From: Candidatus Latescibacterota bacterium
Lineage (GTDB): Bacteria > Latescibacterota > UBA2968 > GCA-2709665
Direction of reading: 5' to 3'
Length of the DNA stretch: 64,000 bases
Assembly (NCBI GenBank): GCA_965248435.1
Contig: OZ252100.1
Span: 4,096,001-4,160,000 of the forward strand
Made by a program: the position numbers and the translations under genes. Shown here in pieces: positions 46,659 through 52,301 of this stretch. Under the pieces are notes generated by a model, which saw only the letters and a program-made list of their open reading frames with translations, was not told where the DNA came from and made no database searches. Positions within the stretch are counted from its first letter, which is position 1. Each line of letters opens with the position of its first letter.

Positions 46659-47450
46659 TTACCAGATCGTCCAGCCGCCGTCGACGACGAGGTTGTGACC
46701 GGTGATCCAGTCTCCGGCCTTCGAGGCGAGGAGACCCACGGCCCCCTTCAGGTGCTCCGGCCTGCCGTGGACCTGGAGCGCGTTGAGCAGTCGGTAGCGC
46801 TCGGCCTGTTTCGGGTCCATATCCGGCTTCAGGATCTGTCCGGGGCTGATGCAGTTGGCCGTGATGCCGTGCGAGCCGAGCTCGGCGGCGAGCGCGCGCG
46901 TGAGGTTGATGACGGCGCCCTTCGCGGCCTGGTAGGGGGGACCCGACCGGGGTTTCATGTCCAGGCCTTCGTACATCCGGAGGTCGGCCGTCGTAAACCC
47001 GTGGATCGAACCGATCGTGATGATCTTGCCGGATCGCTGGGGGATCATCACGCGGGCCGCGGCCTGGGCGCACATGTAGATGCTCTTGACGTTCGTCTCC
47101 CATGTCAGCGTGAACTCTTCGATCGAGGCGTCCGGGATGTAGGTGGTCGTGGCGCTTCCGCCGGCGTTGCAGACGACGATGTCCAGCTGACCTTTTTGGG
47201 CGACGACGGTGTCGATCAGGGCATCGACCTGGGCTTCGTCGGTGACGTCGCAGCCGAGTCCGGTGCAGTCGATCCCGGCCTCCTGCAGCTCGCCGGCGAC
47301 CTGTTCGCAGAGGGCCTTACGCCGGCTCGCGATGTACACGACGGCGCCAAGCTCACCGAGAGCGGTGGCCATGGCCGTGCCGAGATGGGTGCCCCCGCCG
47401 GTGACGATGGCGACTTTGCCTGTTAGGTCGAAGAGTTCCTGGACAGTCAT
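46659..47450 (-). CDS. SDR oxidoreductase (gluconate 5-dehydrogenase-like)
   Basis: LFDLTGKVAIVTGG, CNAG, YQAAK. Confidence 0.9.
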   Translation of the reverse strand: MTVQELFDLTGKVAIVTGGGTHLGTAMATALGELGAVVYIASRRKALCEQVAGELQEAGIDCTGLGCDVTDEAQVDALIDTVVAQKGQLDIVVCNAGGSATTTYIPDASIEEFTLTWETNVKSIYMCAQAAARVMIPQRSGKIITIGSIHGFTTADLRMYEGLDMKPRSGPPYQAAKGAVINLTRALAAELGSHGITANCISPGQILKPDMDPKQAERYRLLNALQVHGRPEHLKGAVGLLASKAGDWITGHNLVVDGGWTIW

Positions 47451-47537
47451 CTATTACCTCCACAAAAGATACGAGGTCTCACCGCGGAGGCGCAGAGAAC
47501 GCGGAGAGAGAATCGAATGATGAATATCGAAGCCGAT

Positions 47538-47741
47538 CCCGGTCCCTCGATACACCCGTGAGCCTTTTCCTAGGTGAAAACTGTTTATCTCACGGAGCGG
47601 GCACTCGGGAACTCGGGACTTCCGTATCAGGTGTTGAGCATAACGAATCAGTGTTGAATCACCCAGAGGCAAAACCCCCGAATCCCCGAGTGCGGCGCTG
47701 AGGAGGGTTCTGAATCACGCGCCGTGTATCGAGGGGTCGGG
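47538..47741. repeat. About 200-bp long inverted-repeat element (paired REP-like units or structured RNA)
   Basis: CCCTCGATACAC/GTGTATCGAGGG and GCACTCGGG/CCCGAGTGC long-range pairings. Confidence 0.65.
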
Positions 47742-47759
47742 CCCCAGGGAGCAGGCACG

Positions 47760-47792
47760 AAAAAGCACCTGCGAATATAATACACAGGTGCC
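47760..47792 (-). terminator. Terminator of the ligD-ku-TPR operon
   Basis: Minus strand GCACCTG-loop-CAGGTGC TTTTT. Confidence 0.65.
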
Positions 47793-47821
47793 AACTCACC
47801 TTGCCCAATGACTTGCCGACG

Positions 47822-48433
47822 CTATCCCTGGGTGGCCAGTGTCTGCTTCAGTCCGCTCAACAGGTCAACGACTTTGTCGATCTCCTCCTTCGGCGCCATG
47901 TCCCTGTATCTCGTGAAGGCTTCGACGGCGCGGCCGAACTCTTCGTTCAGGGCGTGGACCAGGCCCAGGTTGAACTGGGTGTTCGGATATCCGGGATGGA
48001 TCTCCGCCGCGATTTCGTAGTGCACGCGCGCGAGCGCGAGGTCACCCGTCTCGAAGTACTGGTTTGCGAGGTTGTAGTGGGTTTCGAAGTGGCGGGGGTT
48101 GGCCTTCAGGGATTTGGTGAAGCAGTCGAAGGCCTTGGCCGTCCTGCCCTGCTGGGATTCCAGGATGCCCAGGTTGCAGAAGGCATCGGCCACGCAGTCC
48201 CCTTCTGAGATCGCGGTCAAGTAGGCGTCGGCGGCCTTCGGGTCTCCCCGCTCGTCAAGCAGCAGGGCCTCCTCGAAGCGCCCGATCGTTCTGGGAAGTT
48301 CGAGGACATTTCCAGACGACGTGGAGAAGAGGTCGAGCTGATCGGGATCGAAACGCTTCCGCTTGCGCTTCTTGACACGCTTGAACCCGAACTTGGCCGG
48401 GGGCTTTCCCGGAAAGGCGATCACATTGGCCAC
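47822..48433 (-). CDS. TPR protein with a basic N-terminus and a QLDLF motif
   Basis: TPR units AFCNLG, THYNLA, QFNLG; 32 bp downstream of ku. Confidence 0.85.
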   Translation of the reverse strand: MANVIAFPGKPPAKFGFKRVKKRKRKRFDPDQLDLFSTSSGNVLELPRTIGRFEEALLLDERGDPKAADAYLTAISEGDCVADAFCNLGILESQQGRTAKAFDCFTKSLKANPRHFETHYNLANQYFETGDLALARVHYEIAAEIHPGYPNTQFNLGLVHALNEEFGRAVEAFTRYRDMAPKEEIDKVVDLLSGLKQTLATQG

Positions 48434-48465
48434 ACTCTTTTACCTCAGGACGAAGTCGTGTAACC

Positions 48466-49347
48466 TCAGGCGGCTTTTCGCTTTTTGGCCTTGGCCGTGG
48501 TCTTGGTCTTCTTCGCCTTCTTGGCCTTCTTCGTTTGGGCTCGGGCCTTTCCGGTGGCCTTCTTCATCGGCTTCCGATCGGCCTTGGCCTGCTCGATGCT
48601 GTCCTTGAGGGCGGTCATAATGTCCACGACCGGTGCGAGCTCCTCGGCGACGGTCACGATTTCCCTGCCCTCGACCTTGGCCTCCACCATCTCCTTCACG
48701 GCCTGTCGGTAGTTGTCCTTCAGCTCGATCTTGTCCAGGGATGTGGACATCGAGTCGACGAGACTCTGGGCCATCTTCAGCTGTTGGGCGTCCGCCGCTT
48801 CACCGTCCAGTTGAGGTACGTCGGCGATGTTTCGCACCATCTCGGGCGTGCGGAGCTTGTAAAGGATCAGTCCGTTTTCCTCCGGGCCGATCATGACGAT
48901 CTCTTCCCGGTCTCGGAGCACGACCTTGCCGATGCCCAGCTTTCCGCTCTGTCTCAGGGCCTCGCCGAGGAGGGCATAGGCCTTCGCCGCGACGTCGCCG
49001 TCGGGCCCGGCGAAATAGGGGGTCTCATACAGGGTCGGGTGGACTTCCGAGGCGTCCACGAACCCCTCGATCTCGATGATCTTCGTGCTTTTGAGTTTGA
49101 TCTTTTCGAGGTCTTCCGCTTCGACGATCACGAACTGCTCCGGCTCGTACTGGTAGCCCTTGACGATCTCCTCCTTGTCGAGCACCTTGCTGCACTTCTT
49201 ACACTTCTTGTCATATCCGATCGGACCGTTGCACTCCTTGTGCAGCTGGTTGAATCGGATGGTCTGGGCTGTGTCCACGGCGTTGTAGATGCGGATGGGG
49301 ATCGTGACCAGGGAGAAACGGATGTGGCCTTTCCAGATTGCTCGCAT
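48466..49347 (-). CDS. ku: NHEJ DNA end-binding protein Ku
   Basis: MRAIWKGHIRFSLVTIP, IVKGYQY, Lys-rich C-terminal tail. Confidence 0.95.
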   Translation of the reverse strand: MRAIWKGHIRFSLVTIPIRIYNAVDTAQTIRFNQLHKECNGPIGYDKKCKKCSKVLDKEEIVKGYQYEPEQFVIVEAEDLEKIKLKSTKIIEIEGFVDASEVHPTLYETPYFAGPDGDVAAKAYALLGEALRQSGKLGIGKVVLRDREEIVMIGPEENGLILYKLRTPEMVRNIADVPQLDGEAADAQQLKMAQSLVDSMSTSLDKIELKDNYRQAVKEMVEAKVEGREIVTVAEELAPVVDIMTALKDSIEQAKADRKPMKKATGKARAQTKKAKKAKKTKTTAKAKKRKAA

Positions 49348-49386
49348 GCTTTACCTCCGCGTCGGGTCTGGGTGTGACGTTTCGAT

Positions 49387-51714
49387 TCAGGCCGTCAGAT
49401 CGGGACGGAGCCGCACGAAGACCGGCTCGCGCAGCGTCCCGTTGGGTGTGAACGAGGCGTACTGGACCTCGCACAGCAGTTCAGGTTTCAGCCATGTCGT
49501 CTGGGCGTCGTCGACCGGTCTTTCCTTCACGGGACGTTTTCCCGGGGGGACCTTCTTGAGTTCTTTCAGCACGGTCTTGAGCATCCGATCGTCGAAGCCG
49601 GTCCCGACCTTGCCCAGATACTTCAGCCCGTCCCCGTTCCCCTGTGCAAGATGCAGCGCCCCGAATCCGGACCGGCGATCTCCCTTGCCTTCCGTGTAGC
49701 CGATGATCATACACTCGGTCGTCTGCCTGGCCTTTACCTTGAGCCACGAAGCGGACCGCCTGCCGGGCAGGTAATGACTGTCGGACTGTTTGGCCATGAT
49801 GCCCTCGAGGCCCATCTTCTTGGCCGCCTCGAAGAGGTCATTCCCTTCGTCCACGGCCTCGCTGACGCGATAGGTCTCGTTCCTGCGGACGGCATCGGTC
49901 ATCCACTCGCGCCGCACCGTCAGGGGTTCGCTGACGATGGGCCGCCCGTCCAGGTAGAGGCAGTCGAACAGGTAGCAGACGGCGGGGTGCTTTGCGCTCG
50001 CGCGCGTAATCGCGCCCTCGCTCGTGGGATGGAGGCGGCCCACCGCGTGATGGAAGATCGGCCGGCCGCCTTCCTCGAGGCAGACGATCTCGGCGTCGAA
50101 AAGCGCGGAGGAGGCCCTGAAGGCCTGCTCGGGAATCAGCAGCTCCGGGAAGTATTTGGTGATGTCCCGCTGGCTGCGGCTTCTGATCCTCATTTCCCCT
50201 TCGTCGATCGCGATCATGGCCCGTATGCCGTCCCACTTGACTTCATACAGATATTCGGGTCCATCAGGCGGCTCGTCCTGGGTCTCCGCCAGCATGGGAT
50301 CGATCGGCTCGACGAGCCAGTCCACCTGAAGCGGATCGACGCGCTCCAGCAGACATTCCTTGTTCCGGGTGTTGATCAGCCGGTATTCACCGGTGACGCC
50401 CTCACCGTAGAGCCGAAAATAGAAACTGTCTTTCTTCTGCTTCGTGATTTCGTAGGTCCCGTGTCCGAAGATCCACATCCGGCCGCCGCCGTACTGGCCT
50501 TTCGGGATCGTGCCGTCGAAGGCGAGGTATTCGATCGGGTGGTCTTCCACGGAGACTGCCAGGCGCTTGATTCCCGGCCGGGGGGGGAGCCCCTTCGGAA
50601 CGGCCCACGACCTCAGTGCGCCCTCGTGTTCGAGCCGCAGGTCGTAGTGGAGCCTGGAGGCGTGATGGCGATGGATGACGAACGCATTTCCATCTCCCCC
50701 GATCTCGGCAGGAACGGGCTCGGGTGTCTTGCCGAAGTTCCGCTTCTGTCTGTACGCCTCGAGGTCCTCGGGTGACTTGAAGGTCGGGGACGGCCCGACC
50801 TGCCTCCTGGACTTTTTCGTCTGCTTCCGCTCGGTGTGGAGGTCCACGGCGTAGGCGTTGAATCCTTCCCAGGCATCCCCCTCAGAGCGAACGTGGTCCC
50901 TAACGGTGCGGATGTTGAAGACCTTCGGGTCGTCGACGCCGCTCAACTGCTCCCACTGGAGCGGCATCGAGATCGGGGCCGACACGGCGCCTCGAACGCT
51001 GTAGGGTGAAACGATCGTCTGGTAGTGACGGTTCCGGTAGATGTCGACGAGCACCTTTCCGCCACGTGCGTCTTTCTTGATGCGGAGGGTGGTCGACGAC
51101 CCGTGCGCGTCCACGAACGGCCGGGCGACATCCGCGGCGGCATCCGCGACCTGATCGAAGCTCCACCTGGGCTGGATCGGGCAGAGGATGTGCACGCCCT
51201 TTCGGCCGGTCGTCTTGACGAAGGGATGGTATCCGAACCCTTCGACGTGTTCCTTGAGGTCGATGGCCAGGCCGACCACTTCCTCGAATGGGAAATCTTC
51301 CGGGGGATCCAGGTCGAAGACGACGTAGTCCGGCTTGTCGTAGTGCGGCTTGTGAGAGTGCATCTGGTGCAGTTCAAGACAGGCCAGGTTTGCGACCCAG
51401 ACGAGGGTGGCCTCTTCGGAGGCGAGGATGTAGTCGATCTTGTCTTCTTCACCCAGTGCGACGTGCTGAACCCACTCGGGGGCCCAGTCCGGCCGGTTTT
51501 TCTGAAAGAATCGCCCACCCGTGATCCCATCCGGGTAGCGGACGAAGGAAAGGGGCCGGCCGTAGAGGTGCGAGAGGATCGTCGGCGCGATTTCCAGATA
51601 GTACTCGATGAGCTCGGCTTTGAGAAACCCGTCTCCGGGGAAGAGGACCTTATTCAGGTTCGAAAGCTCGATTTTGCGCTTTCCGACACTGGCTAATTGT
51701 GACGTTCTGGCCAT
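49387..51714 (-). CDS. ligD: NHEJ DNA ligase D (polymerase - phosphoesterase - ligase)
   Basis: RYPDGI, FDLDP, KTTGRKGVH (POL); HYDLRLE, SWAVPKG (PE); EVKWDG, EGIMAK, WLKVK (LIG). Confidence 0.95.
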   Translation of the reverse strand: MARTSQLASVGKRKIELSNLNKVLFPGDGFLKAELIEYYLEIAPTILSHLYGRPLSFVRYPDGITGGRFFQKNRPDWAPEWVQHVALGEEDKIDYILASEEATLVWVANLACLELHQMHSHKPHYDKPDYVVFDLDPPEDFPFEEVVGLAIDLKEHVEGFGYHPFVKTTGRKGVHILCPIQPRWSFDQVADAAADVARPFVDAHGSSTTLRIKKDARGGKVLVDIYRNRHYQTIVSPYSVRGAVSAPISMPLQWEQLSGVDDPKVFNIRTVRDHVRSEGDAWEGFNAYAVDLHTERKQTKKSRRQVGPSPTFKSPEDLEAYRQKRNFGKTPEPVPAEIGGDGNAFVIHRHHASRLHYDLRLEHEGALRSWAVPKGLPPRPGIKRLAVSVEDHPIEYLAFDGTIPKGQYGGGRMWIFGHGTYEITKQKKDSFYFRLYGEGVTGEYRLINTRNKECLLERVDPLQVDWLVEPIDPMLAETQDEPPDGPEYLYEVKWDGIRAMIAIDEGEMRIRSRSQRDITKYFPELLIPEQAFRASSALFDAEIVCLEEGGRPIFHHAVGRLHPTSEGAITRASAKHPAVCYLFDCLYLDGRPIVSEPLTVRREWMTDAVRRNETYRVSEAVDEGNDLFEAAKKMGLEGIMAKQSDSHYLPGRRSASWLKVKARQTTECMIIGYTEGKGDRRSGFGALHLAQGNGDGLKYLGKVGTGFDDRMLKTVLKELKKVPPGKRPVKERPVDDAQTTWLKPELLCEVQYASFTPNGTLREPVFVRLRPDLTA

Positions 51715-51794
51715 CGACCGTCCTTGCCGATCTCGGTTCCCGGGCCGACCCGAGGGTGGCTTCCGGACCCCGATTCTGGTGCTAAGATTCGCTG

Positions 51795-51839
51795 TTATAA
51801 GGTCTTATAAAGATAAGAACTGCCGTCTTGCGTTGTCAA
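51795..51839 (-). promoter_or_regulatory. ligD promoter TTGACA-N18-TATCTT with an adjacent palindrome TTATAAG-GT-CTTATAA
   Basis: Direct reading of the minus strand. Confidence 0.5.
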
Positions 51840-51972
51840 CGGACAAATTCCGAATCAGTTGCATCTATTTGGCCAATGCGTTATATTATAAGCCGTTTAG
51901 GCACGGCATTTGCCTTTTCAGAGGGGAAAAGACGGGGGCAACCCCAGCGACACCATCTTCAGAGGAAGACCC

Positions 51973-52242
51973 ATGGGAGCGATGTTTTCAGGGCTGTTTG
52001 CTGTCCTTTGCCTGTTTGCGGTGATTGTTGCCAAATATTTGACTTCGGCGAAACTCCAGAGTTGGCGCCAGCGGGTAATTGAGTCCGAAAATGAGGCTCG
52101 AAAGGCCAGGGGCAGGGTGAAAGCGGCCGAGAACGAGAAGGGCGTGGCAAGCCGCGGGGTGAACACCCAGGAGCGGAAGAAGAAGACACTGGAGCGGCAA
52201 ATCGACAAATTCAGAAAGGAACTCGCCGAGCTGAAGAGTTAG
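51973..52242 (+). CDS. Small protein with an N-terminal TM helix and a coiled coil
   Basis: 89 aa; RBS GAGGA; followed by a terminator. Confidence 0.6.
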   Translation: MGAMFSGLFAVLCLFAVIVAKYLTSAKLQSWRQRVIESENEARKARGRVKAAENEKGVASRGVNTQERKKKTLERQIDKFRKELAELKS

Positions 52243-52267
52243 CCTTTCAGCGACGCTGTGATATGAA

Positions 52268-52301
52268 GAGGCCCCCTGGTTTTCCAGGCGGGCTTTTTTT
52301 T
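52268..52301 (+). terminator. Rho-independent terminator
   Basis: GCCC(C)CCTGG/CCAGGCGGGC followed by T8. Confidence 0.7.

Follow-up and report, generated by a model that had tools for sequence, protein, structure and literature searches.

A TPR protein gene linked to one clade of bacterial Ku probably adds a third partner to non-homologous end joining and carries a candidate sliding-clamp motif

In bacteria, non-homologous end joining (NHEJ) serves as the textbook example of a minimal end-joining system, made up of Ku and LigD. In the best-described cases (Mycobacterium, Bacillus, and Pseudomonas) it consists of a Ku homodimer plus LigD, and abstracts on the subject from 2021-2026 still speak of two components, in line with the premise of an earlier reading of this locus made from the sequence alone (the sequence-only reading). 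The locus lies in a 64,000-nucleotide window, the whole stretch of DNA analyzed, of contig OZ252100.1 from a Candidatus Latescibacterota bacterium (GCA_965248435.1, positions 4,096,001 to 4,160,000 of the forward strand). It resembles the two-component systems in that ku and a three-domain ligD stand side by side and co-oriented. It differs from them in that a third conserved gene, coding for a tetratricopeptide repeat (TPR) protein of 203 amino acids, follows ku, and in that its Ku, which has a tail motif of its own, belongs to a clade sharing only 30-37% identity with the second Ku clade sampled from Bacteroidota. We regard it as close to certain that the TPR gene is a dedicated part of the NHEJ cassette, functionally linked to Ku; in these bacteria, a pathway generally presented as the work of a protein pair probably involves a third partner.

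Full-text searches, which did not cover supplementary tables, retrieved no paper in which a TPR protein, or the sliding clamp, is connected with LigD or Ku. A 2020 survey of NHEJ in 5,973 genomes, supplementary neighborhood tables aside, deals with ku-ligD proximity only and makes no mention of TPR (PMC7719229), a 2021 LigD review mentions neither clamp, TPR, nor accessory proteins (PMC8656161), and a 2024 clamp review lists DNA ligase as a clamp partner but refers nowhere to NHEJ, end joining, or LigD (PMC11139829). The gene perhaps escaped notice because the best 80 loci found here all came from metagenome bins or uncultured organisms.

A word-indexed protein search returned 1273 relatives of the TPR protein at E ≤ 1e-3. 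The 120 of them that were listed, used below as the homologue set, had 168-225 amino acids, were 54-100% identical to the query over 82-100% of its length, and bore generic names only. Scanning one genome per species gave at least 481 loci, and the best 80 were kept for synteny counts, obtained by tblastn with the proteins of the window. The titles of these 80 loci name around 10 phylum-level groups (Latescibacterota, Ignavibacteria, Bacteroidota, Nitrospirota, Verrucomicrobiota, KSB1, Calditrichota, Krumholzibacteriia, Chloroflexota, Deferribacteres, and deltaproteobacterial groups), the nearest one being from Latescibacterota (77% identical). In 77 of the 80 loci, the TPR gene was preceded by a co-oriented ku, with a median of 126 bp between the end of the Ku alignment and the start of the TPR gene (≤500 bp in 71 of the 77). 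LigD was encoded upstream on the same strand in 50/80; nine loci presented at least 3.5 kb of sequence upstream of ku and yet no LigD, which indicated that ku and the TPR gene are the tighter pair. As for the three loci without adjacent ku, L051 begins 135 bp before the gene, and Ku is found at the end of another contig in its genome, while the genomes of L081 and L100 carry Ku elsewhere.

The association also held when Ku was taken as the starting point. In a sample of the own phylum, Ku was present in 24 of 168 genomes, and the TPR gene followed ku in 20 of these 24; in the other four, the TPR gene was located elsewhere in two, the locus was decayed in one, and in the last one it stood at a contig edge. 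Of 301 evenly sampled Bacteroidota genomes, 34 had Ku, and the 30 best-scoring Ku loci were examined with flanks of 1.5 kb. The TPR gene followed all eight Ku that were 54-72% identical to that of the window, whereas it was found within the flanks of none of the 22 Ku that were 30-37% identical. The linkage of homologues to ku on which the sequence-only reading depended was therefore upheld at each of these levels. Since the gene accompanies one Ku clade and was absent beside the other Ku sampled, it marks one subtype of NHEJ cassette. A passenger, that is, a generic TPR protein standing beside ku by chance and with no role in end joining, might be suspected from how common TPR proteins are (32 matches in this genome) and from the entirely generic annotation; such a passenger is already very unlikely in view of the ku adjacency across so many phylum-level groups, the exact tracking of the Ku clade in the Bacteroidota sample, and the history shared with Ku and LigD. 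Pairwise distances of Ku, TPR protein, and LigD correlated with r = 0.73-0.80, a figure that speaks, as sequence comparison goes, of shared history and not of contact.

Among the window genome and 40 relatives, family-level TPR matches occurred in just three (the window genome, G001, and G037), and Ku in the window genome and G001, with a fragment in G008. This patchy distribution within the phylum, together with a Ku identity that is high across phyla and a lower identity of DnaN among relatives, makes the cassette subtype look horizontally mobile between phyla. Thus, Ku from other phyla reached 75% identity to the window Ku (58-86% over the 77 loci, the 86% corresponding to a relative of the same genus), as compared to 62-68% for the DnaN of relatives from the same family or order (the DnaN of this genome is at L126:1501-2670). 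Decayed cassettes were seen at L003 (G037), L103 (G008), L123 (G086), L030, and L034; in G086, Ku lacks its first ~90 residues and abuts a shortened ligase domain, and the Ku open reading frames of L030 and L034 are truncated to 217 and 132 amino acids, respectively.

The architecture of the TPR protein was analyzed by means of an AlphaFold2 model built with 40 of the 120 homologues. Residues 51-200 formed a block with pLDDT 81-97, with nine helices over residues 52-202, and the tail before it fell below pLDDT 50 at residues 1-13 and 24-46. The median net charge over 118 homologues was +7 for the tail and -10 for the TPR domain. Pfam recognized TPR repeats only (TPR_1, 64 bits vs. a cut-off of 27.8) and no helix-turn-helix (HTH) family, and NCBIfam gave no dedicated model, all matches being far below cut-offs. 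Sequence search of the PDB, Foldseek against the PDB, and the protein atlas returned only generic TPR proteins or names, with the tail unmatched; among the PDB sequence matches listed, the best-scoring stretches all begin at residue 61 or later. The best fold matches were the consensus-type TPR domains of designed CTPR proteins and of the OGT superhelix (TM-score 0.54-0.65 on the query, root-mean-square deviation 2.2-3.5 over 122-157 columns, matches 1-16). With these the protein shares canonical 34-residue helix pairs, and from them it differs in having only ~4.5 repeats, in being strongly acidic, and in being joined to a conserved tail without PDB match. The features singled out by the sequence-only reading, KRVKKRKRKR and then QLDLF ahead of the repeats, were found at residues 18-27 and 32-36. 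Aligning the 120 homologues revealed conserved islands within an otherwise variable tail: F7; K14, G16-F17, and R19-V20; a run at columns 21-25 that is K or R in most homologues; QLxLF at 32-36; and L46-P47.

Conservation of the pentapeptide was strong. Of the 120 homologues, 119 had Q at the first position, 110 had L and 7 had M at the second, the third was N, D, or S, and the last two were mostly L (118) and F (116); 114/120 fitted Q[LMA]x[LM][FL], which answers in the affirmative the check for a conserved motif asked for by the sequence-only reading. Column entropies were 0.07, 0.51, 1.81, 0.14, and 0.28, in contrast with 2.0-3.5 in the flanking columns, and in the genome loci 36/40 keep QxxLF. 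The clamp-binding consensus is Q-phi-x-[L/M]-[F/L], with QLxLF as the form of highest affinity and QLDLF as the strongest consensus peptide, according to the clamp review (PMC11139829); the same review gives Gln as important, the second position as tolerant, the third as free, and the last as demanding, and places the clamp motif of Hda in a disordered N-terminus (PMC11139829). The tolerance observed in the family (positions 1, 4, and 5 fixed, 2 tolerant, 3 free) matches this dissection. The commonest form in the family, QLNLF (63/120), is the motif of E. coli UmuC (PMC3716654). Thus, the pentapeptide fits the same consensus as that of recognized clamp clients (the Hda tail, QLNLF of UmuC, QLGLF of Pol II, and Pol IV), in a disordered segment and with the same tolerance; the window protein differs from them in being a TPR scaffold, not an enzyme, and is a candidate client from its sequence. 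QLxLF turns up in a proteome often enough that one occurrence means little; the weight of the motif comes from its conservation and its context, a tail with pLDDT below 50 at residues 24-46 in which the chance of such a motif is ~2e-4 per 50 residues. From these properties we infer that the QLxLF tail may bind DnaN, the sliding clamp, in its hydrophobic pocket.

The same tail could instead belong to an NHEJ scaffold without clamp link, in which the basic tract and LDLF would dock on Ku or LigD and the TPR domain would bind a second partner or self-associate, bridging a pair of end complexes. The ku synteny applies equally to such a scaffold; the co-fold with Ku described below is a weak pass with controls at 0.00, and the tail could be a Ku contact because the co-fold gave no interface for it; moreover, the three conserved islands of the tail besides QLxLF (F7; K14-G16-F17-R19-V20; L46-P47) indicate several partners. 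We nevertheless consider a clamp-free scaffold unlikely: the residue tolerance agrees with the clamp motif position by position, and both Y-family polymerase homologues of this genome (contig C1:3275581-3276786, plus strand, and 670237-671433, minus strand) present the same type of motif, QLSLW or QLGLF, ~40 residues from their C-termini. The tail peptides would in that case act like the Ku-binding motifs of eukaryotic XLF, PAXX, and APLF, yet bacterial Ku is not known to have the domains that such motifs bind.

Clamp-type pentapeptides were also observed in other proteins of contig C1. A DUF72 protein (PF01904, 1.5e-47) at 4814563-4815375 on the minus strand (locus L238) ends in ...QEQLDLF, a typical position for a clamp motif, unlike the DUF72 copies beside ligD, which displayed no C-terminal tail of the QEQLDLF type. 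A RadC-like JAB-domain protein at 1198636-1199166 on the minus strand (locus L239) starts MSYRKGEQLELF, with an N-terminal clamp-type motif, and four DDE_Tnp_1_4 transposase copies (4240298-4241662, 5353929-5355293, 3033898-3035214, and 5341159-5342241; one copy Pfam-scanned) share an internal QQLSLF.

A profile made from the tail alone matched 127 of 1.84 billion representative proteins at E ≤ 1e-3 and 74 at E ≤ 1e-10. Nearly all of the matches were family members of ~200 amino acids or fragments of them, and the tail is therefore specific to the TPR family. Every match at E ≤ 1e-10 had at most 280 amino acids, and three long proteins (490, 1061, and 1259 amino acids) matched weakly and partially; longer proteins bearing the tail were not found, a result that the search itself rates as weak evidence. 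Nine of 14 retrieved matches corresponded to a variant that at full length has ~240-290 amino acids (P0234 is a 213-amino-acid copy whose C-terminal part is no longer family-like). In the variant a MerR-type HTH replaces the basic tract, six of six scanned sequences being above the cut-off of PF13411 (MerR_1), and the Q, L, and F of the motif were invariant in 7/7. The AlphaFold2 model of one variant showed the HTH at residues 22-93 and the TPR domain at 112-273 with a linker between them, with pLDDT <50 at 94-97 and 99-107; the motif (92-96) spans the end of helix 82-93 into this linker. A metagenome scan with an alignment of three close sequences gave at least 409 loci for the variant, and in 78 of the best 80 the homology to the window protein begins exactly at the Q of the motif.

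That a folded MerR HTH can stand where the basic tract would otherwise be suggests a DNA-binding role for the tract. The DNA binding proposed in the sequence-only reading thus gains indirect backing from the variant clade. It also raises the question of a transcription regulator of the operon, akin to RNPP regulators, which are HTH-plus-TPR sensors. The likeness to RNPP and MerR regulators is confined to the variant clade, where the MerR_1 HTH precedes a TPR domain; the window protein and the main family lack an HTH and have only a disordered basic tract, and the TPR gene is the last of the operon. Even in the variant, the long dimerization helix of MerR is missing, as the HTH ends at residue 93 and a disordered linker comes next in the model. 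Regulation would, in addition, leave the conserved QLxLF unexplained, and we hold this explanation to be improbable.

Contact with Ku was modeled by a co-fold of the TPR protein and a Ku dimer, in which each chain was given its own alignment, along with three controls. The complex reached an ipSAE of 0.49 (0.60, 0.49, and 0.48 in the individual runs) vs. 0.00 for the best of the controls; the runs shared at least 52% of contacts and the pLDDT of the partner was at least 70. In the calibration, 58 of 80 solved complexes passed the mark, as did 2 of 110 mismatched pairs; the passes at 0.60 or below comprised just 7 of the 80 solved complexes and both of these mismatches. The co-fold thus lends weak support to a direct complex between Ku and the TPR protein, and counts as modest support because synteny had made the prior high; the physical coupling to Ku put forward by the sequence-only reading advanced to that extent.

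A possible docking site for the TPR domain is the motif K-P-M-x-K-A-x-G in the Ku C-terminal arm (48466-48570), located after a DIMxALKxSIExAK helix. PMx[KR]A was found in the tail of 75 of 76 TPR-linked Ku and, in the Bacteroidota sample, in 8/8 TPR-linked Ku vs. 0/16 other Ku with complete tails. It was also present in both Latescibacterota Ku whose TPR gene sits elsewhere in the genome, and among Ku linked to the MerR variant it was kept in 25/34, with a QQMIKATG-like form in seven of the remaining nine. No clamp-type motif was found in Ku itself in the 30 Ku checked, both clades included.

The basic C-terminal arm of Ku binds DNA and LigD in other bacteria, according to a study of Ku (PMC9638933). 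The TPR protein might then be a regulator of Ku whose acidic TPR domain masks this arm, keeping Ku off DNA or aiding its release, with clamp binding as an option. The median net charge of -10 of the TPR domain, the Lys-rich arm with its clade-specific conserved motif, and the weak pass of the co-fold are all compatible with masking. It is less clear why a protein that only inhibits should have a DNA-binding element, be it basic tract or MerR HTH, that is conserved. We judge such a regulatory role distinctly unlikely, although none of the present observations separates it from the adaptor described next.

The mechanism best supported by all these data is that of an NHEJ adaptor that engages Ku, DNA, and DnaN through its TPR domain, basic tract, and QLxLF, respectively, to which we give about an even chance of being right. 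The 203-amino-acid protein would be a dedicated accessory subunit of one NHEJ subtype (ligD of the Pol-PE-Lig type, ku, and the TPR gene), the cassette of which would move between phyla as a unit. Its acidic TPR domain would dock on Ku, perhaps on the K-P-M-x-K-A-x-G of the basic arm, the basic tract would lie on DNA, and QLxLF would insert into the hydrophobic pocket of DnaN, so that the Ku/LigD complex would be tethered to a clamp on the same DNA. Tethering could stimulate fill-in or ligation, could direct NHEJ to clamp-marked DNA, or could let the replisome handle Ku rings left on repaired DNA. The more extensive proposal that end joining is three-part in many, mostly uncultured, bacteria, with a TPR adaptor coupling the Ku ring and, via it, LigD to the replicative clamp, is put forward tentatively, as we deem it rather less probable than its negation.

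Several observations weigh against the adaptor. The motif was degenerate in six of the 120 homologues (QSKLF, QSDQF, QLNFF, ELDLV, QLDLS, and QLDLI), and four of the 40 genome loci lacked a clean motif, which in L057 was deleted. Sequences of the type Q[LM][SDNE]LF occurred 14 times in 4650 crude open reading frames of this genome, vs. 6.1 expected from composition. Ku was upstream of the MerR variant in 20 of 41 loci with room for it, and the other 21 had unrelated neighbors. Genome G037 (91% complete, 370 contigs) carries an intact TPR gene beside a LigD fragment of ~50 amino acids, and no Ku was found in it; it is the single case against the linkage. The searches with the tail brought up no protein in which the TPR protein is fused to Ku, LigD, or DnaN. 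By the calibration, passes as weak as that of this co-fold are wrong in the majority of cases when the prior is not high. The correlation of distances may reflect one clade only, as related sequences are non-independent, and the Ku-tail motif may likewise be a mere clade marker, since all of these Ku form one clade.

At least 481 species-level genomes carry the third gene, which is tied to one Ku clade, and the variant adds at least 409 metagenome loci. If the adaptor role is true, these bacteria fall outside the minimal model of Ku plus LigD. Binding of DnaN by the QLxLF tail, if real, would place NHEJ among the clamp-coordinated pathways, where it is not listed today, and this would be the first link of bacterial NHEJ to the replisome hub. 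The adaptor would also offer an answer to the question of trapped Ku rings and to that of help for the weak polymerase and ligase steps of LigD. Like the eukaryotic scaffolds XLF, PAXX, and APLF, it would be a non-catalytic partner of Ku whose disordered tail bears a short peptide of basic and hydrophobic character. It differs from them in domain architecture and is unrelated to them in sequence or fold, the PDB searches having given TPR proteins only; the adaptor would thus be an independently invented functional counterpart.

At the locus itself, the three genes are co-oriented with gaps of 39 bp between ligD and ku (49348-49386) and 32 bp between ku and the TPR gene (48434-48465), and open reading frame coordinates and hairpin fold agree with the arrangement and the terminator of the sequence-only reading (Table 1). 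To judge from the sequence, this anatomy is that of one operon. The promoter-like site was the sole sigma-70-like match in 47400-52300 (10 of 12 positions; mean of 0.7 in shuffled sequences). After the TPR stop codon, a stretch of 81 nucleotides folds at -29.3 kcal/mol (z = -2.56; equaled by 2 of 200 shuffles). A simple terminator scan listed a weaker site at 47801-47786 and missed the hairpin with the 10-bp stem because of its 9-nucleotide loop. The GTG start of the TPR gene is supported by the homologues, which align from their own Met1.

Table 1. Position of the cassette genes, their putative signals, and the segments of the TPR protein in the window
Feature	Position	Strand	Description
ligD	49387-51714	minus	Open reading frame of 775 amino acids; domain order Prim-Pol, 3'-phosphoesterase, ATP-dependent ligase
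ku	48466-49347	minus	Open reading frame of 293 amino acids; Lys-rich C-terminal arm with clade-specific motif K-P-M-K-K-A-T-G
TPR gene	47822-48433	minus	Open reading frame of 203 amino acids, GTG start; third gene of the cassette
Promoter-like site TTGACA-18-TATCTT	51839-51810	minus	~95 bp upstream of ligD; consensus match only
Terminator-like hairpin	47760-47792	minus	10-bp stem, 9-nucleotide loop, then UUUUU
N-terminal tail, residues 1-51	48281-48433	minus	Predicted disordered, net charge +9
Basic tract KRVKKRKRKR, residues 18-27	48353-48382	minus	Presumed DNA-binding element
QLDLF (CAG CTC GAC CTC TTC), residues 32-36	48340-48326	minus	Candidate beta-clamp-binding motif
TPR domain, residues 52-202	47828-48280	minus	Nine helices, net charge -10

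The two established components were assigned above cut-off in all cases. LigD is a full LigD, with Prim-Pol, 3'-phosphoesterase, ligase, and OB domains in one protein (PF21686, 2.7e-79; PF13298, 9.3e-33; PF01068, 1.3e-35; PF04679, 4e-25; NCBIfam TIGR02776, 473 bits vs. a cut-off of 373). Ku matched TIGR02772 (273.4 bits vs. 150) and PF02735 (2e-46, 158.7 bits vs. 25). Around residues 35-52 of Ku (49190-49245), H36, C49, and C52 showed little or no variation among 30 cassette Ku (LHKE.NGPIGYDKKCKKC), and the Ku of the window also has C39 beside them; H36, C49, and C52 may constitute a small metal-binding site.

The flanks of the cassette contain genes for an SDR oxidoreductase, response regulators, a xylose-isomerase-like TIM-barrel protein (Pfam AP_endonuc_2), and similar ordinary functions. 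A reading of the cassette as cargo of a mobile element was rejected on account of these ordinary flanking genes, the lack of any plasmid match, and the absence of tRNA genes from the window. In other cassette loci, DUF72 (14/80) and Abhydrolase_11 (PF20408; 11/80) genes were found near ligD, for instance in L029, L032, L034, L036, and L040, and DinB_2 genes stood beside ku in L069 and beside the MerR-variant gene in L159. In L022 and L023 (Ignavibacteriales), a type I phosphodiesterase/nucleotide pyrophosphatase gene (PF01663, scanned in L023) is placed between ku and the TPR gene. Upstream of ligD in the window, and divergent from it, an open reading frame of 110 amino acids (51910-52242, plus strand) gave no Pfam match; its C-terminal half is charged, repetitive, and coiled-coil-like by eye.

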